Assembly (NCBI GenBank): GCA_016432525.1
Contig: CP066693.1
Span: forward strand, 849,639-913,638
Source: Candidatus Woesebacteria bacterium
GTDB lineage: Bacteria > Patescibacteriota > Microgenomatia > UBA8517
Reading direction: 5' to 3'
DNA length: 64,000 bases
Shown: positions 880 through 51,272 of the stretch, in pieces
Numbering within the stretch: the first letter of the stretch is position 1
Layout: each line of letters starts with the position of its first letter
Translations under genes and position numbers: made by a program
Notes under the pieces: model-generated
Told to the model about the DNA's origin: nothing
Databases searched by the model: none
The model's input: only the letters and a program-made list of their open reading frames with translations

Positions 880-2829
880 TTACTTAGCAAGTGCAATTTT
901 TTCTTCAGGTTTTTTCCATGAAGCAAATTTACAATCAGGGTATCTAGAGCATCCATAAAACTTTCTTCCTTTTTTAGTTCTCTTCAAAATTACCTCACCT
1001 TGTCTACACTCAGGACACTTCATATTAATTTTTTCCATATATTTTGCAGTATATTTACAATCTGGAAATCGAGAACAGCTTATAAATTTTCCAAACCTTC
1101 CAACTCTTACAACTAATTCTCCTTCTTTACATTCCGGACATTTCTCGTTTAACTTTTCAGTTTCAATCTTTACTCTGTCAGCCTTTTCAGCATCACTCAA
1201 TTTCTTATCAAATGGCGTGTAAAAATCCTTAATTTCTTTTTGCCATTTTGTTTTTCCATTAGCAACCGAATCCAGTTTATCTTCCATTTCAGCAGTAAAA
1301 GAAAAGTCAACAACTTCGGCAAAATTGTGAAGTAAAAAGTCAGAAACAGCCATTCCAACTGAAGTCGCAAAAAACTTCCCTTCATTTTTCTCTACATAAC
1401 TCCTCAATTGAATTGTTGAAATAATAGGAGCATAAGTCGAAGGCCTTCCAATCCCCAACTTTTCCAAAGTTTTAATTAAAGATGCTTCGTTGTATCTGGC
1501 AGGCGGCTCTGTAAACTTCTGAAACGGGCTAACCTTGATCAAATCTAAACTTTCATCTTTCGAAACATCAGGCAAGTTTACCTCATCACTTACGATTGGC
1601 ATAACCTTTCTCCATCCATCAAATTTCATAATTTGTCCAGAAGTTCTAAGCTCATATTTGTCTGCCTGAACAATAATCACAGTTTCGTCATAAATACTCG
1701 CCGCCATTTGGCATGCCATAAACCTTCTCCATATAAGTTGGTAAAGTTTTAACTCAGTTGGGTCTCCTTCAATCAAAGTCTTAAAAACATCGGTTGGTCT
1801 TATTGCCTCATGCGCCTCCTGTGCGACTTTTGATTTAGTTTTATAAAATCGTGCCTTTTCAGGTAAATAATTTACCCCAAATTCTTTTTCTATAAATTTT
1901 CGAGAGGCAGTTATTGCAACAGCAGAAATATTTGTAGAGTCAGTTCTGTGATAAGTGATAACTCCATTTTCATAAAGTTTTTGAGCAACAGCCATTGTTC
2001 TTTTGGCACTCCAACCAAAGGCTCTTGCCGCAGTCTGGCTCATGGTTGAAGTAGTAAGCGGAGCATATGGATTTTTGGAAATTGTTCTCTTTTTAACATC
2101 AAAAACTTTGTAACGAGCTTTTTCCAAACCAGAAATTACATTATCCGCTTCTTTTTTATTGTCTATTTGTGCTTTTTTGCCATCAATTTTTGTCAGTTGA
2201 ACTGTTATTTTTAGTTTTTCCTGATCTTGCGAAGCAAGATCGACATATACTTCCCAATATTCAATAGGTTTAAATGCATTAATCTCCCGCTCACGCTCAA
2301 CAATAAGTCTCACCGCAACTGATTGAACGCGCCCAGCAGAAAGCCCGCGCCTAACTTTTTTCCATAAAAGCGGTGAAAGTTTATACCCTACTAATCTATC
2401 CAAAACTCTTCTTGCAATCTGAGCATTTACCAAATTTTCATCTATCTCGTGAGGGTTTCTTATTGCCTCCTCGACTGCGCCTTTTGTAATTTCATGAAAT
2501 ACGATTCTTTTTATATCTTTTTTATCAATTTTCTTCTCTTTTAAAATCTCCAAAACATGCTGTGAAATTGCCTCTCCTTCACGATCAGGATCGGATGCCA
2601 AATAAATCTTTTCCGCCTTCTTGCTATCTTTCAAAATTGCAGATATATATTTCTTTTTGTTCCCAACCTCTTCATATAAAGGCTCAAAATTATGATCAAT
2701 ATCAATAGATAACTTTGATTTTGGAAGATCTTTAATATGCCCTCCAGTTGCATCAATTAGATATTCTTTTCCCAAAAATCGAGAAAGTGTCTTTGCTTTA
2801 GTCGGTGACTCAACAATTATTAAATTCAT
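880..2829 (-). CDS. topA: DNA topoisomerase I
   Basis: N-terminal TOPRIM (IIVESPTKAKT...DREGEAIS), a central topoisomerase IA core, and two C-terminal Cys4 zinc ribbons (CPECKEG...CSRFPDC and CPECRQG...CSRYPDC). Confidence 0.95.
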   Translation of the reverse strand: MNLIIVESPTKAKTLSRFLGKEYLIDATGGHIKDLPKSKLSIDIDHNFEPLYEEVGNKKKYISAILKDSKKAEKIYLASDPDREGEAISQHVLEILKEKKIDKKDIKRIVFHEITKGAVEEAIRNPHEIDENLVNAQIARRVLDRLVGYKLSPLLWKKVRRGLSAGRVQSVAVRLIVEREREINAFKPIEYWEVYVDLASQDQEKLKITVQLTKIDGKKAQIDNKKEADNVISGLEKARYKVFDVKKRTISKNPYAPLTTSTMSQTAARAFGWSAKRTMAVAQKLYENGVITYHRTDSTNISAVAITASRKFIEKEFGVNYLPEKARFYKTKSKVAQEAHEAIRPTDVFKTLIEGDPTELKLYQLIWRRFMACQMAASIYDETVIIVQADKYELRTSGQIMKFDGWRKVMPIVSDEVNLPDVSKDESLDLIKVSPFQKFTEPPARYNEASLIKTLEKLGIGRPSTYAPIISTIQLRSYVEKNEGKFFATSVGMAVSDFLLHNFAEVVDFSFTAEMEDKLDSVANGKTKWQKEIKDFYTPFDKKLSDAEKADRVKIETEKLNEKCPECKEGELVVRVGRFGKFISCSRFPDCKYTAKYMEKINMKCPECRQGEVILKRTKKGRKFYGCSRYPDCKFASWKKPEEKIALAK

Positions 2830-2869
2830 GTGTTTAATTTAAGCAAACTGGGAGTATAGCAAACAAGTA

Positions 2870-3448
2870 CTAATATGACAAACTTTCAACATATTCAATT
2901 AAATCAGAAGGTGCTCTTACAATCCTTGCTCCATTTTCAACTAGAAAATAACCAACTTCGCTAAATGGATCATTAATTGGTCCCAAAATTACAAATACTT
3001 CTCGCCCTAAATTTGCAGCCGCAGCGGCAGTTGATAAAGTTCCACTTCTTCTTTTTCCTCCAACAACTAAGACAGCCGAAGACATCTCGGCAATAATTTT
3101 ATTTCTAGCCAAAAAATTTTTTCCCAATGGCAGTGTACCGTCAGGAAATGGCGATATTACCTTTCCATGTTTTTTAATTCTTTCAGCTAGATCTTTATTT
3201 TCAGGAGGATAAATTATATCTTTACCTGATCCTAAAATTGCAATCGTTTCTCCACCTGCATCAAGCGCCGCCTTATGTGCAACAGTATCAATTCCGCGGG
3301 CAAGCCCTGAAATAATAGTAATTCCATTTTTGGCAACTTCATACGAAAATTTATATGCAATTTTTCTCCAATAATCATTTGTCTCGCGTGAGCCAACTAT
3401 CGCAATTGTTTTTTTGTACTCTTTCATGGATTGTTTCTTAAATTCCAA
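2870..3448 (-). CDS. dprA: DprA/Smf-like DNA-processing protein (short form, Rossmann-like domain only)
   Basis: IAIVGSRE...GIDTVAHKAAL...TIAILGSG...VVGGKRRSGTLSTAAAAANLGREVFV is typical of the DprA core. dprA next to topA is a common arrangement. Confidence 0.75.
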   Translation of the reverse strand: MEFKKQSMKEYKKTIAIVGSRETNDYWRKIAYKFSYEVAKNGITIISGLARGIDTVAHKAALDAGGETIAILGSGKDIIYPPENKDLAERIKKHGKVISPFPDGTLPLGKNFLARNKIIAEMSSAVLVVGGKRRSGTLSTAAAAANLGREVFVILGPINDPFSEVGYFLVENGARIVRAPSDLIEYVESLSY

Positions 3449-5590: not shown

Positions 5591-6637
5591 TCAATTAAAT
5601 CCACTTTTAACCTTAAGTCGTTTAAGAAGATTTTTATCCTCCAAAACTTTTCCACAACCCCTGACAACACAAGTTAAGGGGTCATCTGATATATAAACTG
5701 GCATATTTGTAATCTCCGATATAAGCCTATCTATTCCAGGTAAATTTGCTCCCCCGCCAGCCATAATAATTCCAGTATCCATAACATCAGAAATAAGCTC
5801 GGGAGGTGCTGATTCAATTGTCTCTTTTATATTCAAGCAAATTTCTAAAAGCACAGAGGAAAGTGCCTCTCTTACCTCATCAGAAGAAAACTTAATTGAT
5901 TTTGGAAGTCCTGTTTCCAAATCTCGCCCACGAACAACAAAAAACTTTTCTTTTTCAGATGGATATGCTGATCCAATTGAAATTTTTACATTCTCAGCAG
6001 TAGGTTGCCCCAATAAAAGTGAGTATTTAAGTCGCGCATAGGCAATTATCGCCTCATCCATCTCATCCCCTGCAGTACGAATTGATCTTCCAACAACTAA
6101 ACCCCCCAAAGAAATAAGCCCAATTTCAGTTGTTCCACCACCAACGTCAACTATAAAAGAACCAGTTGAATCCTCTATGTTAATCCCTGCTCCAATCGCA
6201 GCAGCCATTGGCTCTTCTATTAAATGTGCTTCCCTTGCTCCAGCAGCTATCGCAGCTTCGGCAACCGCTCGTCTTTCTACTTCAGTAACTCCTGACGGAA
6301 TCCCAATTACAATCTTAGGTCTTGGAATTTTTGGAATAATTGTTCCCGATTCGTGAACTTTTTTAATATAATAGGAAAGCATTGCATAAGTTGCATCAAA
6401 ATCAGAAATCACCCCATCTCGAAGTGGTCTTATCGCCTCAATTGTTGCCGGTGTTCTTCCAACCATTTTTTTTGCAGTTGTTCCAATAGCTAGTACTTCT
6501 TTTGTCTTTTTATGTCTTGCAACAACTGACGGCTCTCGAATCAAAATTCCTTTTCCCGCAACATAAACCAAAGTATTTGCAGTCCCTAAATCGACTCCGA
6601 TATCATGAGAAAAAAGTCCCAGTACTCGATTAATCAT
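5591..6637 (-). CDS. mreB: rod shape-determining actin homolog MreB
   Basis: DLGTANTLVYVAGKGILIREPSVVA..., an actin-fold phosphate loop, and 348 aa length. Confidence 0.95.
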   Translation of the reverse strand: MINRVLGLFSHDIGVDLGTANTLVYVAGKGILIREPSVVARHKKTKEVLAIGTTAKKMVGRTPATIEAIRPLRDGVISDFDATYAMLSYYIKKVHESGTIIPKIPRPKIVIGIPSGVTEVERRAVAEAAIAAGAREAHLIEEPMAAAIGAGINIEDSTGSFIVDVGGGTTEIGLISLGGLVVGRSIRTAGDEMDEAIIAYARLKYSLLLGQPTAENVKISIGSAYPSEKEKFFVVRGRDLETGLPKSIKFSSDEVREALSSVLLEICLNIKETIESAPPELISDVMDTGIIMAGGGANLPGIDRLISEITNMPVYISDDPLTCVVRGCGKVLEDKNLLKRLKVKSGFN

Positions 6638-6661: not shown

Positions 6662-8653
6662 ATGAAAAAAATTACTTCCCTCCTTTTTAACATTCTGTTT
6701 TTGATTACTCCGTTTGTTGTTTACTCAAAAACTTCTGAACTTTTTGAATTCAATAAAATGGTCTTTATTTATTTGCTTACAATTCTAATAGTTGCAAGTT
6801 GGGTAATAAAAATGATTTTGGAAAAAAAATTTATCTTCAAAAGAACTGCTCTTGATATTCCACTTTTACTTTTTTTATTAAGCCAAATTATTTCAACTCT
6901 ACTTTCAATTAATCCTCATACTTCAATTTTTGGATACTACTCCCGTTTTAACGGAGGTTTACTTTCTACCATCTGCTACCTACTATTATATTGGGCTTTC
7001 GTTTCAAATTTAGATCAAACTCAAACAAAAATTTCTTTAAAACTTGCTTTAGTTTCGGGAAGTCTTGTTGCCCTCTATGCCATACTTGAACATTTTGGTC
7101 ATAGTATAAGCTGCGCCATCTTTACTGGAAAATTTGATGATGATTGTTGGGTTCAAGATGTAAAGCTTCGGGTCTTTGCAACATTAGGCCAACCAAATTG
7201 GCTTGCAGCTTGGATAGTTGCCCTAACCCCAGTAACTTGGGCCTTTACCTTAGAATCAAAACTAAAAACCAGAAAGTCCTTTTTGTATATTTTCTTGTCA
7301 ATTTTATTTGTATCAACTTTAATATTTACAAAATCAAGATCAGGATTTTTAGGTTTTTTTGTTGAATCATTAATTTTTGCAATATTGACGCTCAAAAATT
7401 ATCCCAAAAAATTAATTGTTATTGCATTTTCTGTTTTTTTGACTTTCATAAGTTTTGGTTCTCCTTGGACTCCATCCATCTCTCAATTTCTTGACAAAAA
7501 ACCAAAGACGCAAGAAACAGTTCTGCCTACTGTCACTAGTCAATTAGAGGCGGGTGGAACAGAATCAGGAGACATCAGAAAAATTGTCTGGAAAGGGGCA
7601 CTTAGTGTTTTTACTCACTACCCAATATTTGGAACAGGTGTCGAAACTTTTGCTTACTCCTATTATCAATTTAGACCAATTGAACACAACTTAACTTCAG
7701 AATGGGACTTTCTATATAACAAAGCTCACAATGAATATCTAAATTACATGGCAAATTCTGGAATTTTAGGAATTTCCAGCTATCTTGCTATCATTTTATT
7801 TAGTATTTTTGTATTTTTAAAAAACAGAAAAAATATTTTCTCAATAGCTCTTCTTTCTGGATTTGTCTCTCTTCTGATTTCGAATTTTTTTGGCTTTTCA
7901 GTAACCCTTACAAACCTTGAACTTTTCTTGTTTCCCGCAGTCGCTATTTGTTTATCTCAAAAATCAAAAGAAAGAAAAATAAATTTTAAAGAAAACGATT
8001 TTTTACAAAACTCCCTTTTAGTGGTGGCACTTCTTACAAGCTTCTATATTATTTTTCTGATTGGAAAATATTGGTATGCAGATATTCTCTATTCTAGAGC
8101 CCGTACTTTTAATAATAGTAATCACCCCGAAAAAGCCATCGACGATCTAGACAAAGCAATTTATCTAATCGCAAACGAGCCAAATTATCATATGGAATTA
8201 GCCCAAAGTTATGCTCAAATTGGCCAGAAAAAGGTGATAGCTGAAGAGGCAGTAAAAGAAGGCCGTCTCGCACTTTCTTTAAATCCAGTAAGCATAAATC
8301 TAGTAAGAAGTCTTTCCAATGTTTACACCAAATTATCAAGCATTGATCCTCAATATCTAAATGATTCAGTAGATATTCTTAAAAATTCAACGGAAATCGC
8401 CCCTCACGATCCAAAACTTTATTTTCAGCTAGGTCTTTCCTACGGCAGAATAGAAGATGTAAAAAATTCAATCGAAAATCTCAAAAAAGCAATAGATTTA
8501 AAGCCTGATTACAAAGACGCTCGGCTCGCTCTTGCAATAGTCTATGAATCCGCAAATCAAAAAGATGATGCCAAGAATCAACTTGAATATATCCTAAAAT
8601 ACATCGCCCCAGGTGATAAATTTGTCAAAACCGAGTTAGAAAAGCTAAAATAG
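6662..8653 (+). CDS. polytopic membrane protein with an O-antigen ligase (Wzy_C)-like core and C-terminal TPR repeats
   Basis: About 10 TM segments followed by a TPR-like repeat region (AIDDLDKAIYL...LKKAIDLKPDYKDARLALA). The ATG at 6662 is preferred because the 6605 start would overlap the mreB end. Confidence 0.6.
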   Translation: MKKITSLLFNILFLITPFVVYSKTSELFEFNKMVFIYLLTILIVASWVIKMILEKKFIFKRTALDIPLLLFLLSQIISTLLSINPHTSIFGYYSRFNGGLLSTICYLLLYWAFVSNLDQTQTKISLKLALVSGSLVALYAILEHFGHSISCAIFTGKFDDDCWVQDVKLRVFATLGQPNWLAAWIVALTPVTWAFTLESKLKTRKSFLYIFLSILFVSTLIFTKSRSGFLGFFVESLIFAILTLKNYPKKLIVIAFSVFLTFISFGSPWTPSISQFLDKKPKTQETVLPTVTSQLEAGGTESGDIRKIVWKGALSVFTHYPIFGTGVETFAYSYYQFRPIEHNLTSEWDFLYNKAHNEYLNYMANSGILGISSYLAIILFSIFVFLKNRKNIFSIALLSGFVSLLISNFFGFSVTLTNLELFLFPAVAICLSQKSKERKINFKENDFLQNSLLVVALLTSFYIIFLIGKYWYADILYSRARTFNNSNHPEKAIDDLDKAIYLIANEPNYHMELAQSYAQIGQKKVIAEEAVKEGRLALSLNPVSINLVRSLSNVYTKLSSIDPQYLNDSVDILKNSTEIAPHDPKLYFQLGLSYGRIEDVKNSIENLKKAIDLKPDYKDARLALAIVYESANQKDDAKNQLEYILKYIAPGDKFVKTELEKLK

Positions 8654-37074: not shown

Positions 37075-37962
37075 CTAAATTATTTTTTCAAAATACTTAG
37101 CAAGTGCAGGTAGTTCTGGAGATATTTTATTATATGTAAAACCAGGGCCTCTATTTACTTCCAAAAGCCATGGTTTTCCTGCTTTGTCTATCAAAACATC
37201 AACTCCAGCTATCTCAAGTTTTAAGACCCTTGAAGATTTTGTCGCTATAGTTCGAATATCTGGCGGCACTTCTTTGGGGTCAAAAAATTCTTCAGATGCC
37301 CCTCGTGCAACATTTGCTCTAAACTCTCTTGGATCATCTTGAATCTTCTTTTCAGCTACAGCAATTCTATCACCCAAAACTAAAAGTCTATATTCGATAT
37401 CTCGCTCGCAATATTTTTGAAACATAAATCCTTCACTTGGATGTTTCTTGCGAAGTTCCATAAAATCATTGCGGTCTTTAAGTAAAAATACACCAATTCC
37501 TCTTTGAGTTTTTGGATTTTTAGAAACTACTGGAAGTCCAAATTTATTAATAATCCGATCAATGTTCTTTTCAATATTTCCTCTTGAACATAAAAATGTA
37601 GGAATTACCGGCAAGTCATTTATTGCAAGCCTAATAAGTGAAGGAAGCTTATCACCAGTATAACTGGCAAAACTAAATACTGAATCTATAAATCCAATAT
37701 GGTAATAATCCATACATATAGATAATGCTTTTGCAATTGAAGAATATCCAAAAGTTTTACGAAAATATATCAAATCAAAATCACGAAGGTCATGCTTTCC
37801 AATATTTACATCAATCTTTCCTCTTTCAAAACTAAACTCAATATCTGAAAAAGATGCCGTCAAAACATCAACTTTTCCTTTTAAATCATGTTTTACATGT
37901 GAATAAATACTATCTTTTGTTTTCTCCTCTTTGCCCATTAAAATTAGAAGCTTTTTTTTCAT
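37075..37962 (-). CDS. RimK-like ATP-grasp ligase (paralog 1)
   Basis: PVVSKNPKTQRGIGVFL and GVDVLIDKAGKPWLLEVNRGPGF ATP-grasp signatures. Confidence 0.75.
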   Translation of the reverse strand: MKKKLLILMGKEEKTKDSIYSHVKHDLKGKVDVLTASFSDIEFSFERGKIDVNIGKHDLRDFDLIYFRKTFGYSSIAKALSICMDYYHIGFIDSVFSFASYTGDKLPSLIRLAINDLPVIPTFLCSRGNIEKNIDRIINKFGLPVVSKNPKTQRGIGVFLLKDRNDFMELRKKHPSEGFMFQKYCERDIEYRLLVLGDRIAVAEKKIQDDPREFRANVARGASEEFFDPKEVPPDIRTIATKSSRVLKLEIAGVDVLIDKAGKPWLLEVNRGPGFTYNKISPELPALAKYFEKII

Positions 37963-38062
37963 TACTCAGATTATATGCTTAAAAAATTAATAACACAAAA
38001 AAATGCCACGTATTTGGTGTAATTTGCCAATATACGTGGCTAACTAAAATATTAAAACAGAT

Positions 38063-38665
38063 TCATACGAGTCGACCGGTCAGGAAAAGCCAGATAGCCC
38101 AAACCGTCTCTTGCGAAACAGAGGCCAAGACCTTGGTCGGCGGCTCATAAGCCAAAAAGGTGGTGTCTATGATCCTAAGAGCCTCATCATTCCCAGCGTT
38201 GGACTTCCTGAGCCACTTCCAAACCCTACGATTCAGGTTGGGAATGAACTTCGGGTCATCAGTAACGACATAAAAAAGCAGATCAGCCGCCCACTGATGA
38301 GCACCACGGCCTTCTGTGCCGGGAATCGGCTCACCAGTTTTATTGCTGACAATCTTTGTGCTCTCACCCTGCATGGAATCATCACAGAGATTAATCAGTC
38401 TCTCAAGTGTCTCCTTGCCCAAAATTGCCTCCATAGCAGGTCCACGCCCGGTCGTAATCGACCGAAATTGGGTCTCCTCCCGGATTTGCCTCATTACCTT
38501 TGGTCCCAGTTTGTCTGGATCAAGGTTGTAACCCAAGATGGTAAGCCATACCCGCATTGCCGTAAGCTGATCAAAGCTAAAAAATTCAATCGGATACGGA
38601 TTCTCTGAGTTAACTAAATTGAGAATAATCCGATCAATTTCTTCACGAATATCTTTAGGTGCCAT
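38063..38665 (-). CDS. hypothetical protein (200 aa), GC-rich, embedded in the ATP-grasp array
   Basis: Clearly higher GC than its neighbours. No recognisable motif. A 9-bp perfect inverted repeat lies downstream (38005..38040). Confidence 0.4.
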   Translation of the reverse strand: MAPKDIREEIDRIILNLVNSENPYPIEFFSFDQLTAMRVWLTILGYNLDPDKLGPKVMRQIREETQFRSITTGRGPAMEAILGKETLERLINLCDDSMQGESTKIVSNKTGEPIPGTEGRGAHQWAADLLFYVVTDDPKFIPNLNRRVWKWLRKSNAGNDEALRIIDTTFLAYEPPTKVLASVSQETVWAIWLFLTGRLV

Positions 38666-38734
38666 TTCTTCCTCCAGGCTACTTAGCCTTAGAATATAGA
38701 ATAGTAAACATATTATATCATACTACAGGATAGT

Positions 38735-39622
38735 TTAACTACTTTGAAGAGTCTCAAAATATTTAATGATTTCGAGAGCTGCATTTACGCTCGTATATTT
38801 TTCCAGACCTTCAAACTGAGGGGCTGGATTTACCTCAAGTATATATGGCTTGTCAGTTTCTTTATTTATCATAATATCAACTCCTGCAATTTGAGTTCTC
38901 ACAACAGCTGCTACACTCTCGGCCAATTCTCTAACATCCGCTCGACTATTCAAATCAAAATTAGAACCCATCCCTCCTTGACTGATATTACTTCTAAACT
39001 CCCCGATCTTTGGAGTTCTCTTCATGGCCCCAACTGCTTTATACCCAACACAAAAAACTCTAATATCTCCATCGTTTGGAATAAACTCTCTTACAACAAA
39101 CGATAAAGAACTTTTAAGTATTTCGGAAGCCCTAGCTTTAAGCTCATTCATATCATTTGCCTTAAATACACCTTTACCTTTTCTTCCATCACTTCTTTTA
39201 ATAATGATTGGAAATTTAAATTCACCAGAAAAATTATCTAAAAATTTTATTGAAAAGAAAAGAAAGCTTCTTGGATATTGAAAGTTATTTTGAGTTTGCC
39301 TTAAATAATCTATGGCAGGAGTTAAAAAATAATTATACGTTGGGTCAATCACCTTCTTATTTACTATTATGGTTTTATATTTCTCCGCTAAATATAAAAA
39401 CGCTGTATACCATTCCCATCTTCTTTTGCTAGTTAGGGAATAAACTAGATTATATGAGGACAAATCATGTCCAGTTAGAATTGGTTTAAATTCATTAGTT
39501 GATGTATCAATTATAAGATCAGATGAAAGAGATCCCAAAACTTCATGTCCTCTTTTTTTACCTTCTTCAGAAAGTCTTTCAAACTGAATTCCTTTTGTAA
39601 GTCCAACAATAAGTATTTTCAT
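38735..39622 (-). CDS. RimK-like ATP-grasp ligase (paralog 2)
   Basis: FPIIIKRSDGRKGKGVF and GVDIMINKETDKPYILEVNPAPQF. Confidence 0.75.
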   Translation of the reverse strand: MKILIVGLTKGIQFERLSEEGKKRGHEVLGSLSSDLIIDTSTNEFKPILTGHDLSSYNLVYSLTSKRRWEWYTAFLYLAEKYKTIIVNKKVIDPTYNYFLTPAIDYLRQTQNNFQYPRSFLFFSIKFLDNFSGEFKFPIIIKRSDGRKGKGVFKANDMNELKARASEILKSSLSFVVREFIPNDGDIRVFCVGYKAVGAMKRTPKIGEFRSNISQGGMGSNFDLNSRADVRELAESVAAVVRTQIAGVDIMINKETDKPYILEVNPAPQFEGLEKYTSVNAALEIIKYFETLQSS

Positions 39623-40491
39623 TTTGCATTTGCAATTGCGTGTTCAACATAAACTTTCCCAATATTCTTTGAATATGCCTTTTCCATCCCGATAAAACCA
39701 GCAGTATGATTAACCTCCAATAAATATTTTTTGTTTTGCTTATCAATCAAGATATCTACTCCAGCAACGCTCATGTCAACAGCTTTTACGGCCAAATTAG
39801 CCAGTTTACGGCTTTCGCTATCAAGCTCAATAGTTTCAACACTTCCACCAAGAGAAAAATTTGCTCTAAACTCACCCTGCCCTGGAATTCTTCTCATTGG
39901 AAAAATCTCCCCTCCGATAACCAAAGCTCTAATATCATATTCATAATCAATGAATTTTTGCGCTATAAAACTTTTTGCTTCTTTTCCCTCTTCCTGAAGT
40001 TTCGAAATAAGATCGTTTAGTTCGTTTTGATTATTTAGCTTATATACAGAAGCCCCCTTGCCCATCCTGGATGATTTAAAAACAAATGGAAATCCTAAAG
40101 TTTGAGATGCTTTTTTATAATCTTCAAAATCCCTAGAATAAAAGCTGTCTGGAATAGGTAAATGATTAATATTAAGCCTCAATATATCACCGATTTTATC
40201 GATTGAATATTGATGTTTGAGTACATTATTGTCAAAAATCTTTATTCCTCTTTCCTTAAGCGCCACTATAACATTTGAGATAGATTTTATTGATGTAAAT
40301 ATCCCCCTAACAATTGCGATATCACAATTTAAATTATCTAACTTATCTACATTTAGTTTGTTATCAATTATAGAAAATTTAAATTCCGATAGATCAACGA
40401 GCTCAAAATCATGTCCCAAAGCACGTATTTCTTCTTCAATTCTTTTGTTTTCATCAAGACTTGTTAAAGTTGTAATAAGAGATATCTTCAT
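39619..40491 (-). CDS. RimK-like ATP-grasp ligase (paralog 3)
   Basis: FPFVFKSSRMGKGASVY and GVDILIDKQNKKYLLEVNHTAGF. 4-bp overlap with paralog 2. Confidence 0.75.
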   Translation of the reverse strand: MKISLITTLTSLDENKRIEEEIRALGHDFELVDLSEFKFSIIDNKLNVDKLDNLNCDIAIVRGIFTSIKSISNVIVALKERGIKIFDNNVLKHQYSIDKIGDILRLNINHLPIPDSFYSRDFEDYKKASQTLGFPFVFKSSRMGKGASVYKLNNQNELNDLISKLQEEGKEAKSFIAQKFIDYEYDIRALVIGGEIFPMRRIPGQGEFRANFSLGGSVETIELDSESRKLANLAVKAVDMSVAGVDILIDKQNKKYLLEVNHTAGFIGMEKAYSKNIGKVYVEHAIANAK

Positions 40492-40507
40492 TTTTATTAT
40501 TTGTGAT

Positions 40508-41845
40508 TCATACCTGTTTATGACTCCAAAGCTTCTGATACCAATCCGCGCTTTTGTCTATCTGCTTTGGACTAACCAAAAATCCTGACAAATCTCGTCT
40601 TCCTATTATAATCTGAGATCTTAAATTTGATCTATTTGCTAAACTTGCAATCGTAACAATTTTCCTCCCAGCTAGATAGAATGTCAAATTGATAACTGTT
40701 CTATTTTCCTTACCCAAGCCACTTTTTACCTTTTTCGACCATAAAATATTTTCTTTTGTTACGAGTCCCAGTTTTTTTGCCAAGTCCCTATCCATTGAAG
40801 TTCTCCATGCACCAGTATCAATTTTTGCAATCATTTCGTGTTTCTTGCTACTGTTGGATACCACTTTTATTTTTTCCCAAGTATTAATTGTTTTAATTCC
40901 ATCATCAGGAATTACTCTGTTTCCAAATCTTTCTCCAAAGATAGCTTTGGCTATCTTTACAGCATGCTCGCTATCTCTTACTTCCAAATCCTCTACACGA
41001 TCCAATCTTTTTTTAAGACCAGCCATATTGGCAAGTTGAATTTGAAGTCCGGGTCGTGCATTTAACTCCAATATCATAGGCCCATCAGTTGGATGAAGTA
41101 TAATATCCACACCAACATATCCAAGCCCACAAGCTTCAGCAGTTTTAGATGCAAGATCCAAAATCTTATTCCATTGAGGAATTTTAATTCCATTGAGCTT
41201 TCGCTTTGTATCAGGCTTGTAAATTATCGGATTTCCATGATAAATTGCCCGTGTTGTAATACCAGTTGCAATATCAATTCCAACAGCAACCGCTCCTTGA
41301 TGAAGATTTGCTCTTCCTCCTGATTCCTTTGTAGGGAGTCTGAGCATTGCCATAACCGGAATTTTGTTAAAAACAATAACACGGATATCAGGTGTTCCGC
41401 GATACGCATATCGCAAAAATGCCTTATGTCTTCCAACATATTCCTGAATAAATGCAACGTCAGGCACATTTCCAAGGCTATAAGCCCCTTCCAAAATATC
41501 AACAACCTTAAGCTTCAAGTCCTCAACTGTAACTCTCTCTTTTTGCGTTGTAACCCACCCGTTTCCATCTCTAGCCTTTCTTTTAATAACTACGATTCCC
41601 TCGCCTCCAAATCCTCTGCTTGGTTTTAATACAAAACTACTGGGTAATTTTTCCCAACTAAAATCAGTTATATCCGCCAAACTTTTGAATCTTTTGTAAA
41701 CCATTGGGGTTGGAATTTTAGCCCTTTTCAAAACTCTATACATCTGAAGTTTTGAATCAGCGATTCTTTTTCCAACTCTTGAATTATATTTATATAAATA
41801 AAGCTGCGATCTTGCATTGAGTCCCAATATTGAAGAAATTTTCAT
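40508..41845 (-). CDS. ATP-grasp ligase (paralog 4) fused to a C-terminal retropepsin-like aspartyl peptidase domain (RimB/'ATP-dependent Zn protease'-like)
   Basis: N-terminal ATP-grasp (VLKPSRGFGGEGIVV ... GVDIILHPTDGPMILELNARPGL). C-terminal KIDTGAWRTSMD (DTGA) retropepsin-like signature. Confidence 0.65.
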   Translation of the reverse strand: MKISSILGLNARSQLYLYKYNSRVGKRIADSKLQMYRVLKRAKIPTPMVYKRFKSLADITDFSWEKLPSSFVLKPSRGFGGEGIVVIKRKARDGNGWVTTQKERVTVEDLKLKVVDILEGAYSLGNVPDVAFIQEYVGRHKAFLRYAYRGTPDIRVIVFNKIPVMAMLRLPTKESGGRANLHQGAVAVGIDIATGITTRAIYHGNPIIYKPDTKRKLNGIKIPQWNKILDLASKTAEACGLGYVGVDIILHPTDGPMILELNARPGLQIQLANMAGLKKRLDRVEDLEVRDSEHAVKIAKAIFGERFGNRVIPDDGIKTINTWEKIKVVSNSSKKHEMIAKIDTGAWRTSMDRDLAKKLGLVTKENILWSKKVKSGLGKENRTVINLTFYLAGRKIVTIASLANRSNLRSQIIIGRRDLSGFLVSPKQIDKSADWYQKLWSHKQV

Positions 41846-41864
41846 AATTTATTACAAGCTTTGC

Positions 41865-42674
41865 TTATTTTGACTTAATCAGTTTTCTAAATCGATAGTA
41901 TTCCAAAAATCTTAAACCCGAATATTTTCCAATTACAAAATCCAAAACAGCAACTCCTATCAAAAGAATTTCGGGATGAGCAAGAGCAAAACTTCTCAAA
42001 ACCTGAGTAACCAAAAGAAGGTATGACAAAAAACCCAAAAACAGTGTTTCTGCTGTTATCTTGATGGCTGTTTTCCCAGATTTTCCAAGTTGAACTCTTG
42101 TAAAATCCTCAGACAAAAGAACCAAAACAAGGACAGGGAAAATAGATACATTTGCTATGTCAATTCTTCCGATTACAGGAGTTAAAAATACAAGTCCGAG
42201 TAAACATACTGCAATTGCCCAAAGTATAAATGCCATACGAGGAAGATATTGCAACCTAACCTTGGCATCCCTCAAAAAGACACGCGTAAATGTAGACACA
42301 AAAACAATTATTAGAAATAAAATAATTCCAATCAAAGGGCCTATTGATAAAAATACAACAGAAAGCGCTGCAGGAAGTAAAATTCCAAAACCTCGAATAC
42401 CAACTATGTGGCGAATTGCAGCAATCAAAGATGCAACCAGAGGTAATAATAGAAGAAGAGTTATAGTATCCGAAGACACTCCTGATGCAATCGCATAGGA
42501 AATCGCATAAGATATAACATTCCCAGGCCAAAAAGCCGATGTCCCAGCCAAAAATCTATTAGCAATAAAAAAAGTTAAAACAAATGTTGCCAAAAAAAAG
42601 GTAAGAAGTGTTACTTTTCGAAGGGTTGTCATGGAAATAAGCTCCAAAATTATACCATTTTTTGAAGATGTCAA
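41865..42674 (-). CDS. polytopic (about 7-8 TM) membrane protein heading the ATP-grasp operon
   Basis: Seven to eight hydrophobic helices. Sits where 7TM partners of RimK-like/peptidase systems are described. Divergent from the rSAM gene. Confidence 0.45.
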   Translation of the reverse strand: MTSSKNGIILELISMTTLRKVTLLTFFLATFVLTFFIANRFLAGTSAFWPGNVISYAISYAIASGVSSDTITLLLLLPLVASLIAAIRHIVGIRGFGILLPAALSVVFLSIGPLIGIILFLIIVFVSTFTRVFLRDAKVRLQYLPRMAFILWAIAVCLLGLVFLTPVIGRIDIANVSIFPVLVLVLLSEDFTRVQLGKSGKTAIKITAETLFLGFLSYLLLVTQVLRSFALAHPEILLIGVAVLDFVIGKYSGLRFLEYYRFRKLIKSK

Positions 42675-42810: not shown

Positions 42811-43929
42811 ATGAACGAATGGATATTCAGGACTTTCAGTCCAATAATAAAAGTCGTTGGAGCGGGATGTAATTTAAGATGTACATACTGCTTCTACTTT
42901 GGACATCAGCCAAAGATAAATATAATGGGAAATGATGTGTTGAAACTAGTATTAAGCGAGTGTCTTCAAGCGGCGTCTTTCGTTAGATTCATCTGGCACG
43001 GAGGTGAACCCACAATAGCAGGAGCAGAATATTATCGAAAGATACTTGCCATAGAAGACAAAGTTCGTAGAGATGGTCAAAAAGTTACTCATAGTATACA
43101 AACCAATGCTACGCTTTTAAATCCTCAATGGATTGATCTTCTTAAATCCAAGAGATTCTCTATCGGAGTAAGCATTGATGGGCCAGAATACCTCCATAAT
43201 TTTGCTAGAATCAACGCAAACGGTCGCGGATCATTTAGAGAGGTTCAAAAAGGTATCGTGCTATTTCGGAATGCAGGAATAAAATTCGGCTCAATCGCTG
43301 TAGTCAATAGTTACACAGTGAATTTCCCTGAAGAAATATTCTGGTTTATGTACAATCAGAAAATTTCCTTTAGTGCTAATGCGTGTGTAGCATATCCTAG
43401 CGATCCAGAGGAGGTCAGACAATTAACAATAAGCCCAATGCAATTCTCTAATTTCCTTCTTCGATTGTTAGATCTATGGCTAAAAACAGATGATCCAACA
43501 TTCAACATCAAGCCATTAGATGACATAATCAAAGGAATATTAGGACGACAACCTTCTCTGTGTAGATATCGCGGACAATGTCAAATGTATCTAACAATAG
43601 ACTCCAATGGAGATGTTTATCCATGCGATGAGTATCTAAATCAAAATTACAACTTTGGCAACCTAAGACAAACGCCATTGAAAAAAATTGTTCAAAGCAC
43701 AAACCTCAATGAGTACTATGCAGGCAGAACAATCATGCAAACTGTCTGTCAAAACTGTCAATGGTTCAATATCTGCAAAGGAGGCTGTATGAGAGAATGG
43801 GGCGGTTCTAAATCCATTACCGACCCTAGAGAAACGGAATTCTGCAAAGCTCGACAGTTTCTGTTCGAGGAAGTAAGAGATCGAATTCAGCTATTGGGAT
43901 ATTCCAAAAAGGAGATTCTAAATGTCTGA
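42811..43929 (+). CDS. radical SAM enzyme with C-terminal SPASM domain (peptide-modifying maturase type)
   Basis: CNLRCTYC (CxxxCxxC) near the N-terminus. C-terminal CQNCQWFNICKGGC (Cx2Cx5Cx3C) plus additional auxiliary-cluster Cys. Confidence 0.9.
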   Translation: MNEWIFRTFSPIIKVVGAGCNLRCTYCFYFGHQPKINIMGNDVLKLVLSECLQAASFVRFIWHGGEPTIAGAEYYRKILAIEDKVRRDGQKVTHSIQTNATLLNPQWIDLLKSKRFSIGVSIDGPEYLHNFARINANGRGSFREVQKGIVLFRNAGIKFGSIAVVNSYTVNFPEEIFWFMYNQKISFSANACVAYPSDPEEVRQLTISPMQFSNFLLRLLDLWLKTDDPTFNIKPLDDIIKGILGRQPSLCRYRGQCQMYLTIDSNGDVYPCDEYLNQNYNFGNLRQTPLKKIVQSTNLNEYYAGRTIMQTVCQNCQWFNICKGGCMREWGGSKSITDPRETEFCKARQFLFEEVRDRIQLLGYSKKEILNV

Positions 43930-44167
43930 CATACTCATATCCACAATCAGATGCGTGGCAATCCCACCTCCGTCTCACATCGGTCCTTCTCAAATCGTAA
44001 ACGCTCTTTTGGCAAACAGCAGCCCTCTTGCTATAAATGCCAATATGCCTGCAATAGACGGCGAAGAGGATTGGGACGACGATTGGGACGATAGCTGGTC
44101 GGAACATTCAGATGGGCCAAGCTGGGGTGACGGCGACCAATGGAGTGATTCCACTCACAATCCATAA
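43922..44167 (+). CDS. candidate RiPP precursor peptide (81 aa) with five Trp-x-Asp/Glu repeats
   Basis: ATG overlaps the rSAM stop (atgtctga). Leader-like N-terminal half, then core EEDWDDDWDDSWSEHSDGPSWGDGDQWSDSTHNP. Confidence 0.55.
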   Translation: MSDILISTIRCVAIPPPSHIGPSQIVNALLANSSPLAINANMPAIDGEEDWDDDWDDSWSEHSDGPSWGDGDQWSDSTHNP

Positions 44168-44272
44168 CGTCGAAAACTACAACATAGTATGCTAAAATAA
44201 AAAGCCTGGATCCTACTTGCTCTAAACAAAAGTGGGATCTGGGCCTCTCTGAAACGAGAGATACAAAAAATT

Positions 44273-45277
44273 ATGAATCTCAACTTCCGAATTACAAAAA
44301 CTTCTAATCTTTTTCATTTCATCTCAAATCTAACTAACTGGCATTTCAGTGTTAGACCTTCATACAAAAGATACTGGTTAGAAAAAACTGGTCCACTTAC
44401 AAAAAAAGAGGAAGAAACACTTCAAGAAGTAGATTCTTTATTTAAAAAATACAATTTTGGTCCCAATTACTGGGGACACGTACTATTAACAGAAGAAGAT
44501 GAAATTGTTTGGGAAAAAGCAAATAAAAAATTTGGGGCAAAAGATACCGAAAAATTCAGGCATTTTGAAAAAGTATTTTCAAAAAGATTTGAAAAAATCT
44601 GGACAGAAGACAAAAACAAATTAACTGAATGGAAAAAAGTATTAGAAAGATCAAATCAAAATAAAACTTCTGATAAACTTATTGAAACTCTAAATTCATT
44701 ATTTGGAAAAGACGGGGGCGGAGAGGTGATTGATGTAATCTTACTATTAAGCACTCCTAACACACGAGGTGCTGGTGGTGGAAATCTAGCTCCTCGCGCT
44801 ATTACATTGGAAGTATCTCAAACTCCAGACCAGTATACTACTAACGTTCAACTTATGCTTTGGCACGAACTTGTTCACGTAATTTGGGAAAAAGGACCGT
44901 ATCAAAAAACATTCAATAACTTTCACGAAAAGTTATTGAATTCAGGAGCTCTATCTCCTGTAGAAAATGTCCCATTAAGAGTTACACTCAACGAAGCTGT
45001 AATGGAATCCCTCTTACCTTATGGATATCTTGGATATAAATATTTCAATTATAAAAGTAAAGATTACTTCAATGAAATACTTTCGAAACTTGAAAACAAT
45101 TTCGACAAGAATCAAGTGATGATATATTGGCGAGTATATTCTGCCAACAAACTTTTTGAATTATCTCAAAATTATTGTGAAAGAGGAAAAGCAATTGATA
45201 AAGACTTTTTAGAAAAGGTTGTAAAAATAATGATTGAATTTATTAATAAAAGGTGGAGTCTATCAACCAATCCCTGA
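44273..45277 (+). CDS. hypothetical protein with an HExxH motif (WHELVH); possible metallopeptidase
   Basis: LMLWHELVHVIWE. Immediately downstream of the precursor. Confidence 0.35.
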   Translation: MNLNFRITKTSNLFHFISNLTNWHFSVRPSYKRYWLEKTGPLTKKEEETLQEVDSLFKKYNFGPNYWGHVLLTEEDEIVWEKANKKFGAKDTEKFRHFEKVFSKRFEKIWTEDKNKLTEWKKVLERSNQNKTSDKLIETLNSLFGKDGGGEVIDVILLLSTPNTRGAGGGNLAPRAITLEVSQTPDQYTTNVQLMLWHELVHVIWEKGPYQKTFNNFHEKLLNSGALSPVENVPLRVTLNEAVMESLLPYGYLGYKYFNYKSKDYFNEILSKLENNFDKNQVMIYWRVYSANKLFELSQNYCERGKAIDKDFLEKVVKIMIEFINKRWSLSTNP

Positions 45278-45291
45278 AACTTTAAAGGACA

Positions 45292-45501
45292 TTACCCTTG
45301 TTTCTGTATCCCTAAAATCCACAAAACAGCTTCTTTTTTGTAACGTCTGTCTCCTCTTGAATTAATCCTAATCGGAGGAAGTTTACCTCTTTTGCCCCAC
45401 CTCTTAATAGTAAGGGGAGAAACTCTTAGAAGTTCTGCAACCTCCCTTACTGTCAATAAATCTGGCAGTTCATCAAGGTTGATCTTCTTTTTACTATTCA
45501 T
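45292..45501 (-). CDS. small helix-turn-helix DNA-binding protein (excisionase/MerR-like HTH)
   Basis: LLTVREVAELLRVSPLTIKRW HTH signature. 69 aa. Confidence 0.55.
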   Translation of the reverse strand: MNSKKKINLDELPDLLTVREVAELLRVSPLTIKRWGKRGKLPPIRINSRGDRRYKKEAVLWILGIQKQG

Positions 45502-49483: not shown

Positions 49484-49636
49484 ATGTTTGTTTTCTCTCT
49501 ACACGAAGAGGAATTGCCGGAAGACATAGCAAACGGCCCAGTTGAAATGGAAGACGGTCCCGTCGAAGGATTAAGCCCTCTACACGTCACATCAAATCCA
49601 GACGCCGACGAAGGGGACAAGGATCCTGAACAGTAA
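49484..49636 (+). CDS. small acidic peptide (50 aa)
   Basis: RBS AAAGGAAA before the ATG. MFVFSLHEEELPEDIANGPVEMEDGPVEGLSPLHVTSNPDADEGDKDPEQ. Promoter and terminator present. Confidence 0.45.
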   Translation: MFVFSLHEEELPEDIANGPVEMEDGPVEGLSPLHVTSNPDADEGDKDPEQ

Positions 49637-49808: not shown

Positions 49809-49955
49809 ATGCCAACCGTATATTGGATGAGCAGCGACGATGATGACGAGGTCTCAAATCCTGGCACCCCGCCGCCGGAATTGGGTGAGCCGCAAAGCGA
49901 CCCGCCGCCTTCTGGAACCGAAATCGATGAGAATGGAGAACCCACCGGTAGTTAA
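49809..49955 (+). CDS. small acidic Pro-rich peptide (48 aa)
   Basis: RBS AAAGGA. MPTVYWMSSDDDDEVSNPGTPPPELGEPQSDPPPSGTEIDENGEPTGS. Confidence 0.45.
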   Translation: MPTVYWMSSDDDDEVSNPGTPPPELGEPQSDPPPSGTEIDENGEPTGS

Positions 49956-50042: not shown

Positions 50043-51272
50043 ATGCCTCATCAAATAAAAACTTCAAAGAACGGTCTAACAATAATTCTTTCAATACAAC
50101 CCAATGTCAAAATTACAACAATAGTTTCTTCTTCTAGAGCTGGCTCAAGATATGAGACAAAGGAAGAGAGAGGATATGCACACTTAATGGAACACACAAT
50201 GCTTCTAGGATCAAAAAATTATTCTCAAAAAGACATAAATTCTAATCTTGATCTTTACGGAGGATATCTAAACGCTCTCACAAATCAGGAATTTGTTAAA
50301 TGCACAATGCAGGTATTATCTGAAAACGAAGAAAAACTCTTGCCTATTTTTGCAGATTTGTTAGAAAACCCTATTTTTAACGAAAAAATATTAAATAACG
50401 AGAAAAAAGTTGTTTTGGAGGAAATAAAACTATTTGAAGGCAAATATCGAGAAATACTTTGGAGAAATACTCTTCAAAAAATTTTACCTAAAAACCATCC
50501 CCTTACAAATCATGCTTTAGGTGAAGTGAATACAATCAAAAAGGCATCCAGTGACCATCTAGCTAAATACCACAATCGAACAATGCAGCCAAACCAAACA
50601 GTAATTTGTATAATTACACCCAATAAAAGTGGCCAAAAAGCTTCAGAATACATATTAAATAATCTTTGGAAGAACCAAAAAATTGAAACTCAAAAGAATA
50701 ATAAAATAACAACAAAAATTAAACAAGCTTATATTGAAATGGAAATACCCACTCCCCAATCTCAAATTCTAATAAATTATGCAACAAAAAGACTTGAATA
50801 CAAAGAGTCACTTATCTTGCATTTAATTTCAACTTACTTGGGATATGGAAAAACTGGGGCACTTAAAGACATGCTCAGGAGTCAAAAGGGTCTAATATAT
50901 AGTCTGCAAACCATGACTCCTTCTTATCAAGAAATGTCTTGTTTCGCTGTAGCGACATCATCCACAAAACCTAAAGAAGTTATAGAAGTAATAACTAATA
51001 AATTAGAAAGTTTATCTCAAAGCATAACAGATCAAGAAATTGAAATTGCAAAAACTAAACTTATAAACTCAGTCTCTCTTTCTTTTGTAAATCCCATAAA
51101 TGAATGTAATGTTCTTCTCAGTGAATATCAAAATTACAATATAGTTCAGACAAACGAGGAGAGAAAAGAGAAAATAAAAAAAATCAAACCAGAAGAAATA
51201 AAGGAAATTGCCTCTAGGCTACTCAAGCCACAAAACAGAGCAATAGCTATTGGAAAAGGAAAATCAGATTAA
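50043..51272 (+). CDS. M16-family (insulinase-like) zinc peptidase
   Basis: Inverted zinc motif HLMEH (HxxEH) plus downstream E. 409 aa. Confidence 0.75.
   Translation: MPHQIKTSKNGLTIILSIQPNVKITTIVSSSRAGSRYETKEERGYAHLMEHTMLLGSKNYSQKDINSNLDLYGGYLNALTNQEFVKCTMQVLSENEEKLLPIFADLLENPIFNEKILNNEKKVVLEEIKLFEGKYREILWRNTLQKILPKNHPLTNHALGEVNTIKKASSDHLAKYHNRTMQPNQTVICIITPNKSGQKASEYILNNLWKNQKIETQKNNKITTKIKQAYIEMEIPTPQSQILINYATKRLEYKESLILHLISTYLGYGKTGALKDMLRSQKGLIYSLQTMTPSYQEMSCFAVATSSTKPKEVIEVITNKLESLSQSITDQEIEIAKTKLINSVSLSFVNPINECNVLLSEYQNYNIVQTNEERKEKIKKIKPEEIKEIASRLLKPQNRAIAIGKGKSD

Follow-up and report, generated by a model that had tools for sequence, protein, structure and literature searches.

What does a Woesebacteria cell make with a radical S-adenosylmethionine (rSAM) enzyme whose gene overlaps that of a small acidic peptide? 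The question is raised by three consecutive open reading frames (ORFs) in the 64,000-nucleotide stretch of Candidatus Woesebacteria DNA analysed here (the window; contig CP066693.1, positions 849,639 to 913,638). An original prediction, made from the letters alone, had described them as a previously unannotated locus for a Trp-crosslinked peptide that is synthesized by the ribosome and modified after translation (RiPP). The answer favoured here, with moderate confidence, is that the three genes form a triceptide-type (three-residue cyclophane) RiPP cassette, composed as follows:

42811-43929 (+): rSAM ORF, 372 aa, a predicted radical-SAM/SPASM peptide maturase resembling anaerobic sulfatase-maturating enzymes (anSMEs)
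43922-44167 (+): predicted precursor peptide ORF, 81 aa, with an 8-nt overlap with the rSAM gene
44273-45277 (+): partner ORF, 334 aa, an HExxH...E protein

The CxxxCxxC motif, the SPASM motif, the 81-aa ORF and the WHELVH protein all lie where the original prediction had placed them. Its description of the locus as unannotated holds for function only: GenBank already calls all three ORFs, and the identical proteins are entered as 'radical SAM protein' (QQG47449.1) and 'hypothetical protein' (QQG47450.1 and QQG47451.1).

The first step concerns the peptide. It belongs to no Pfam or NCBIfam family, and comparison with its homologues indicates a ribosomal precursor with an N-terminal leader and an acidic, six-unit C-terminal core:

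43991-44026 (+): leader motif QIVNALLANSSP, consensus roughly xx(I/V)xxA(L/I)LxES, from peptide alignments
44072-44149 (+): core of six aromatic-x-Asp/Glu units, from a shuffle test, register analysis and alignment

The core units are W51DD, W55DD, W59SE, H62SD, W68GD, and W74SD. The five W-x-[DE] units counted originally are all present, and H62SD adds a sixth. Residues 46-81 hold 14 acidic residues in 36 and no Lys or Arg. In composition-preserving shuffles of the window core, six units compare with a mean of 2.6 (p=0.006); the same test gives p≤0.006 for each Woesebacteria-clade peptide and p≤0.001 for most homologous peptides. Across 10 acidic homologous cores, Asp or Glu stands at +2 of 61 of the 74 core aromatics (82%), against 6-12% at +1, +3, and +4 and an overall background of 27%. 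The first residue of these 61 units (Ω) is Trp in 30, Tyr in 16, and His in 15. At the middle position (X2), Ser is commonest (30/61 units), and G, N, D, P, A, I, R, and E also occur. The six window units align one-to-one with those of locus L001 (HPD/YSD/WSE/HSD/WGD/WSD) and also with those of L002 (HPD/YDD/WSE/YSD/WGD/WAD). In the peptide alignment, the columns without variation are those of the Asp at position 3. The repeat is therefore not the Trp-specific W-x-D motif first proposed, since Trp, Tyr, and His interchange at homologous positions and the Asp at +2 does not change.

How far does the pairing of peptide and enzyme extend? The comparison set comprises 13 independent lineages picked through rSAM or peptide similarity (rSAM identity about 30-56%), drawn from Woesebacteria, Wolfebacteria, Saccharibacteria, and metagenome contigs. 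One outgroup of 80 anSME-like loci (26-33% identity), taken from among the matches listed of a genome-contig profile scan (generic patterns F[IVY]WHGGEP and CNLRCxYCF), served the tree as well as the scans for peptides and sulfatases. In 12 of the 13 lineages, the rSAM gene has as neighbour a gene for a short peptide rich in Trp, Tyr, and His, the call in L094 being uncertain. The proposed maturase/precursor pair is thus conserved, and the check whether rSAM homologues neighbour a W-x-D peptide comes out in its favour, in the form of an adjoining aromatic-rich peptide gene. The peptides are homologous in L001, L002, L087-L092, and L095, and more divergent in L093, L096, and L013. A direct protein search with the peptide returned two relatives only, and the others were recovered from rSAM neighbourhoods; a metagenome profile scan with the peptide alignment returned three loci, all of the L002 lineage.

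In the Woesebacteria clade, whose rSAM homologues share 42-56% identity, a small ORF with at least five Ω-x-[DE] units overlaps the rSAM gene or lies no more than 60 nt from its stop in the window, L001, L087, L088, L089, L090, L091, and L092. L002 is the exception in this clade, with the peptide gene 3' of the partner gene. An ORF scan of the 80 outgroup loci found no such small ORF next to the rSAM gene. Representative peptides read:

L001 peptide: ...YSDWSEHSDGPSWGDNTDWSDSTHNP
L087 peptide: ...YSDAGYNDSHSDSGGPGWGDQWNDGSEHSDSWSDQGSP
L088 peptide, uncalled as a gene in its record: ...YSDTGYNDYSDHSDSPSWSDNWNDGPNHSDSWGDSSDD
L090 peptide: ...WDDLDWGDYSDYNDAPWDDWADWSDS...

Distant relatives, at about 30-38% rSAM identity, keep the arrangement with different cores. 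The core reads WDD..WEN..WED in L095 (Wolfebacteria), HTD..YND..FEN..WSN in L093, and PWD(R/K)GHWANRK in L096 and L013 (Saccharibacteria). In L095, an ATP-binding cassette (ABC) transporter gene (1581-3320, +; ABC_membrane + ABC_tran) lies directly upstream of the rSAM gene and is the sole candidate exporter seen next to any cassette. The uncertain L094 candidate (5660-6098, -), MSDAHVVAKVKELAKQQPANGDRIIAKVKELAKQQLANSWNDC, has a strong Shine-Dalgarno sequence, and its leader is duplicated internally. A TGA ends it, and beyond this stop the frame stays open as CHNDHSGG up to a TAG; the TGA could be a sequencing error, read-through, or a recoding that would add Ω-x-D units.

The second step concerns the enzyme. 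The 42811 ORF is a member of the radical SAM/SPASM superfamily (Radical_SAM PF04055, 63.2 bits, cut-off 29.5; SPASM PF13186, 46.1 bits, cut-off 21.5), with these features:

42868-42891 (+): CxxxCxxC cluster motif (C20, C24, C27), invariant in 21 clade members
43747-43788 (+): SPASM motif CQNCQWFNICKGGC (C313...C326), read from the sequence
43561-43845 (+): SPASM region with eight Cys (C251, C257, C272, C313, C316, C322, C326, C345), by alignment to 4K36/4K37

The eight auxiliary Cys residues correspond to the ligands of two 4Fe-4S clusters and are invariant in the 21 clade members. The aligned counterpart of anSMEcpe's catalytic Asp277 is Asp273 (43627-43629), kept in at least 90% of these members. 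With the rSAM motif beginning at residue 20, there is no N-terminal RiPP recognition element (RRE) domain. The top NCBIfam match is the anSME model TIGR03942 (293.4 bits, E 2e-87), below its cut-off of 349.45; the other anSME models also stay below theirs (NF010321, 225.4 vs 441; NF010308, 199.3 vs 484). Directly after anSME, the ranking contains crosslinking maturases only (DynA, DarW, DarE, AmcB, GrrM/OscB, and YhhB), and no model named YxdB is among the best 25 of 64 matches. The NCBIfam scores are:

DynA: 222 bits, cut-off 450
DarW: 198 bits, cut-off 650
DarE: 173 bits, cut-off 650
AmcB: 153 bits, cut-off 425
GrrM/OscB: 150 bits, cut-off 310
YhhB: 143 bits, cut-off 445
FxsB: 94 bits, cut-off 370
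XyeB: 84 bits, cut-off 450

Scores below cut-off throughout place the enzyme within the radiation of anSMEs, daropeptide maturases, and enzymes that form three-residue cyclophanes (3-CyFEs), in none of its curated families. The profile search against rSAM-SPASM subfamilies that was proposed as a check accordingly does not indicate a non-peptide family: the anSME score falls short (293 < 349) and the next-best models are peptide maturases. DarE itself is picked up by TIGR03942 (PMC10705402), so anSME as best model is no argument against peptide crosslinking. Common ancestry of 3-CyFEs, daropeptide maturases, and anSMEs has been described (PMC12912966). Against solved structures, the sequence scores 193 bits with anSMEcpe (4K36) and 84 bits with the rSAM domain of ChlB (9GM3). 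In a neighbour-joining tree, the cassette rSAMs form one clade, with anSMEcpe and all 23 sulfatase-linked loci elsewhere. The sulfatase signature C/S-x-P/A-x-R is found in none of 15 clade loci (six-frame scan of the 64-kb window and 14 related loci) and in 23 of the 80 outgroup loci. A defence-system reading was rejected, PADLOC yielding only a generic rSAM match to pVip (49 bits).

What would such an enzyme do to such a peptide? Across the 13 lineages (L094 uncertain), an anSME-related SPASM rSAM adjoins a precursor with conserved Ω1-X2-X3 motifs, the combination by which triceptides are recognized. In the triceptide-type reading, the 5'-deoxyadenosyl radical of the rSAM would abstract a hydrogen from Cβ of the Asp or Glu at unit position 3; the resulting carbon radical would add to the aromatic ring two residues upstream and then be re-oxidised. 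Each unit would thereby gain a C(sp2)-C(sp3) three-residue cyclophane, with a loss of 2 Da, and the window peptide could carry up to six of them (up to -12 Da). The cytoplasmic HExxH...E partner may then remove or trim the leader of the modified peptide up to the first ring. We infer the crosslinking steps from enzyme ancestry and motif register; the trimming step is less certain. The original prediction had called the Asp-rich W-x-D core unusual, but such chemistry has precedent: OscB joins C7 of Trp to Cβ of Asn or Asp, and in the case of YxdB the bond runs from Tyr C3 to Asp Cβ (PMC11002830). With this precedent, the cassette represents a new branch of a known kind, not new chemistry. What is new here is the host group, the candidate phyla radiation (CPR), together with the separate rSAM clade, the nearly pure Ω-x-D poly-anionic cores, and the unannotated partner family. 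A literature search, whose scope did not extend to surveys mapping triceptide sequence space, returned no paper tying CPR or Woesebacteria to cyclophane or rSAM peptides, and the rSAM clade may already sit inside a published similarity network. Metal binding and interaction with hosts or competitors are guesses at the role of the product.

The third gene raises a question of its own, namely whether the partner cuts or oxidizes. Its putative active site is the following:

44864-44878 (+): putative metal site H198/E199/H202 (WHELVH), with E241 at 44993-44995

The partner has no sequence match in the PDB, 8s5f included, and no Pfam or NCBIfam family above threshold; the only matches are faint (DUF2268, E 0.048; Reprolysin_3, E 0.077). 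The family to which it belongs is large: clustering at 50% identity leaves 682 representatives, of which 236 match at E≤1e-30. In 150 of the representatives, H198, E199, H202, and E241 are conserved at 99-100%, likewise G168 and E180. The fold of the partner model lies nearest to the catalytic domains of M1, M61, and M30 peptidases, and ChlH is also among the structural matches; a Foldseek comparison of the model with the PDB gave no significant match, the best being an M61 peptidase (E 0.095). As modelled, the partner is an HExxH...E metalloenzyme with a gluzincin fold, from a family without annotation. A homologue occurs in 11 of the 13 lineages. In L091 and L095 its place is taken by a transglutaminase-fold protein with a transglutaminase-core Cys-His-Asp triad, for which Pfam support in L091 is weak (22.9 bits vs a cut-off of 23). 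In lasso-peptide pathways, the transglutaminase fold is that of the leader peptidase.

Two observations on other loci touch this gene. In L013 (Saccharibacteria; 7264-8127, -), the partner gene is present in fragments only, such as a 90-aa ORF with EELLISSFIPEGYLGQN, and may be a pseudogene or carry frameshift errors. A second, smaller HExxH protein (216-234 aa) with a weak Peptidase_MA_2 match is encoded one or two genes from the cassette in L090 (6840-7493, -) and L092 (6026-6730, +), and may be an additional processing peptidase.

The partner is probably a peptidase, and likely the one that removes the leader. This assignment is favoured because no sequence link to the α-ketoglutarate (αKG)-HExxH family is detectable, and because the swap for a transglutaminase-core protein in L091 and L095 is what a protease function would lead one to expect. 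A serious rival reads the partner as an HExxH oxygenase dependent on αKG and Fe(II), of the ChlH, BpmH, or PflC sort, which would hydroxylate residues within preformed rings or cleave the backbone oxidatively. HExxH proteins of cyclophane clusters include hydroxylases of Asp and His, and PflC can cleave both oxidatively and hydrolytically (PMC12636437). For the third gene, such an oxygenase is a possibility to be taken seriously, though clearly the less probable one. None of 12 partner-family members matches the αKG-HExxH model (IPR026337) or any other NCBIfam model at E≤10, and the peptidase domains of M1, M61, and M30 give marginally better matches that also span more residues. A transglutaminase-fold protein stands in the partner's place in two lineages, and Asp Cβ would already be substituted. 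CPR bacteria are, moreover, mostly anaerobic fermenters with a poor supply of αKG. The leader peptidase of the original prediction thus gains from the gluzincin fold and signature and from the transglutaminase-fold swap, and is qualified by ChlH (8s5f) among the structural matches.

Several points weigh against the triceptide-type cassette as a whole. The rSAM reaches the cut-off of no curated cyclophane-synthase family (XyeB, GrrM/OscB, FxsB, YhhB, AmcB), and it is nearer to anSME (4K36, 193 bits) than to ChlB (84 bits), the only solved triceptide synthase. The cassette lacks any conserved transporter or immunity gene, and the comparison rests on 13 lineages selected by rSAM or peptide similarity. 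Crosslink type and regiochemistry, and how many units are modified, are predictions. Finally, anSME-type enzymes and DarE can also turn Ser into formylglycine, and Ser is the commonest X2 residue (30/61).

The last point leads to an unlikely alternative, in which the same pairing of enzyme and precursor carries other rSAM chemistry: conversion of Ser to formylglycine or a β-oxo product, a non-ring modification of Asp Cβ (hydroxylation, dehydrogenation, or aminomalonate-type oxidation), or C-O or C-N links. A 3-CyFE is reported by Ma et al. in 2021 to yield formylglycine and aminomalonate in vitro, and this reportedly observed outcome counts in its favour. So do the rank of anSME as top profile and as nearest solved relative, the conserved catalytic Asp, and the fact that DarE yields formylglycine when Ser occupies the abstraction site (PMC10705402). 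However, the conserved residue is the Asp or Glu at +2 of the aromatic and not Ser, X2 varies, and the strict pairing of the aromatic with an Asp at +2 makes sense only if both residues are involved. Darobactin-type ether links require an aromatic at position 3 (PMC10705402), and that residue is absent here.

Far less probable is a third alternative, that the peptide is a scaffold from which crosslinked Ω-x-D units are excised by the metalloprotease as an aromatic-Asp cofactor or metabolite, in parallel with the making of pyrroloquinoline quinone (PQQ). In PQQ biosynthesis, PqqE forms a Glu-Tyr C-C bond and peptidases then release the product. The bond predicted here between an acidic side-chain carbon and an aromatic ring is analogous to the PqqE reaction, many tandem units per core recall multi-core precursors, the metalloprotease-like partner is conserved, and no transporter is conserved in the cassette. 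Yet the interchange of W, Y, and H at homologous units fits a single defined cofactor poorly, further tailoring enzymes are not conserved, and distant cassettes have non-acidic cores such as PWDKGHWANRK.

That the rSAM is an ordinary anaerobic sulfatase maturase and the 81-aa ORF a chance or unrelated one can hardly be credited, even though TIGR03942 is the top NCBIfam match (E 2e-87) and the homologue P0008 is named 'Iron-sulfur oxidoreductase MdsB' in its source, as the score of 293 is below the cut-off of 349, neither the 64-kb window nor the clade loci contain a sulfatase signature, against 23 of 80 outgroup loci, the clade stands apart from sulfatase-linked enzymes, the peptide is conserved in sequence and position though the rSAMs are only about 30-56% identical, and the peptide gene has its own Shine-Dalgarno sequence and a downstream hairpin.

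How the three genes are arranged bears on their expression. The peptide gene opens with an ATG 5 nt upstream of the rSAM stop, a TGA (43927-43929), giving an overlap of 8 nt (ATGTCTGA); the ORF does not start inside the stop codon, as had been stated. Two elements flank its translation:

43908-43914 (+): Shine-Dalgarno AAAGGAG, 7 nt upstream of the peptide ATG and within the rSAM 3' end, read from the sequence
44204-44244 (+): RNA hairpin with a 15-bp stem directly 3' of the peptide gene (element to 44260, including a small second hairpin)

The overlap and the Shine-Dalgarno sequence inside the rSAM gene suggest that the peptide is translationally coupled to the enzyme. The alternative GTG start at peptide codon 12, used in one GenBank annotation (P0121), lacks such a Shine-Dalgarno sequence. 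The hairpin has a minimum free energy of -31.4 kcal/mol (z = -6.65), and none of 200 shuffles folds equally well. Seven of nine loci have a similar stem (10-15 bp) 3' of the peptide gene, without conserved sequence. Hairpins 3' of the precursor gene are common in RiPP loci. The one at 44204-44244 is not a canonical terminator, as it has no U-tract, and may serve as a transcript-end, attenuator, or stabiliser element. The peptide region has a GC content of 0.48 against about 0.35, owing to its Asp/Trp/Gly/Pro/Ser codon content. An RNA gene in this GC-rich region was considered and ruled out, with no Rfam or tRNA match there.

Among the neighbouring genes, a divergent operon lies upstream (37075-42674, -):

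41865-42674 (-): 7TM_transglut membrane protein, RloB-like
40508-41845 (-): ATPgrasp_ST protein with faint retropepsin/Zn_protease-like C-terminal matches
39619-40491, 38735-39622, and 37075-37962 (-): three RimK-like ATP-grasp ligases
38063-38665 (-): 200-aa protein without family, raised GC of about 0.49

The operon looks like an Rlo/RimK-type peptide-ligase system. It was rejected as a part of the cassette because the 7TM_transglut gene and the four ATP-grasp genes occur in none of the other loci. Right after the partner gene, a convergent gene (45292-45501, -) encodes a 69-aa MerR/HTH_17 (excisionase-like) protein; it has a PADLOC match to 'mad1' (42.5 bits) and is not next to the cassette in other loci. 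Further downstream, two small acidic, Pro-rich ORFs (49484-49636 and 49809-49955, +), MFVFSLHEEELPEDIANGPVEMEDGPVEGLSPLHVTSNPDADEGDKDPEQ and MPTVYWMSSDDDDEVSNPGTPPPELGEPQSDPPPSGTEIDENGEPTGS, lie in a raised-GC stretch, without family match, just upstream of an M16 (insulinase-type) peptidase gene. The M16 peptidase (50043-51272) was considered as leader peptidase and rejected, not being conserved near the cassette elsewhere.

What would the triceptide-type cassette mean beyond this window? CPR (Patescibacteria) have genomes of about 1 Mb and are regarded as poor in natural-product pathways. A broader and decidedly tentative reading makes this locus the founding case of a multi-CPR RiPP system, with a distinct cyclophane-synthase clade, a new gluzincin-like family (at least 680 clusters at 50% identity), and varied charged cores, from poly-anionic Ω-x-D to basic PWDKGHWANRK, used for metal capture or host interaction. 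The products would then be multi-ring, highly charged peptides of reduced-genome, presumably episymbiotic bacteria, and the partner chemistry might be one so far undescribed for HExxH proteins. A compact, conserved RiPP cassette in Woesebacteria, Wolfebacteria, and Saccharibacteria would for the first time open a way to a small molecule, secreted or structural, of these uncultured organisms. The cyclophane synthase clade would stand between anSME and DarE/3-CyFE; it appears to accept W, Y, or H at one site and to need Asp at position 3, which would help to explain, and to engineer, the determinants of X3 specificity (compare HtkB D214 and HaaB H204; PMC11499958). A sizeable protein family without any annotation would also gain a functional context. 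The whole system amounts to three small genes and is amenable to co-expression in E. coli.

Which known system does the cassette resemble most? With lasso pathways it shares, in L091 and L095, a small Cys-His-Asp transglutaminase-core protein next to the precursor, like the B-protein leader peptidases; it has no lasso cyclase, and a leader-peptidase role would follow by analogy. ChlB/ChlH (9GM3, 8S5F) is a fused rSAM and αKG-dependent HExxH hydroxylase, whereas here the genes are separate, sequence searches do not link the partner to the αKG-HExxH family, and its likeness to M1-type peptidase domains is no weaker than that to ChlH. DarE, DarW, and DynA are the second- to fourth-best profiles, are likewise anSME-derived, and crosslink Trp in short motifs without an RRE. 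However, daropeptides use Ω1-X2-Ω3 motifs and ether links on a short core with one or two rings, whereas position 3 here is D/E in 61/74 and 5-8 units stand in tandem; the daropeptide and dynobactin cut-offs (450-650) are not reached. The closest solved structure is anSMEcpe (4K36; TIGR03942), with the same length, domain order, all three clusters, and the catalytic Asp. Unlike anSME, the enzyme here scores below the family cut-off, falls in a separate clade, and adjoins a small acidic peptide instead of a sulfatase substrate.

The triceptides and their 3-CyFEs (OscB/GrrM, YxdB) share the most: a SPASM rSAM without an RRE, kinship with anSME, multiple rings per peptide (predicted here), and a neighbouring precursor in which Ω1-X2-X3 units recur. 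For triceptide substrates, Asp at X3 as well as W, Y, or H at Ω1 is documented (PMC11002830, PMC11499958). YxdB (WP_226048651.1) is likened by its published chemistry, not by sequence, through the YxD-type units in the precursors here. The cassette differs from described triceptide systems in an rSAM outside the curated 3-CyFE families and in a precursor family absent from Pfam and NCBIfam. It also differs in its nearly pure Ω-x-D core (most Woesebacteria-clade precursors have 5-8 units, and the window core lacks basic residues), in its named hosts, which are CPR/Patescibacteria, and in a partner from a new gluzincin-like family.

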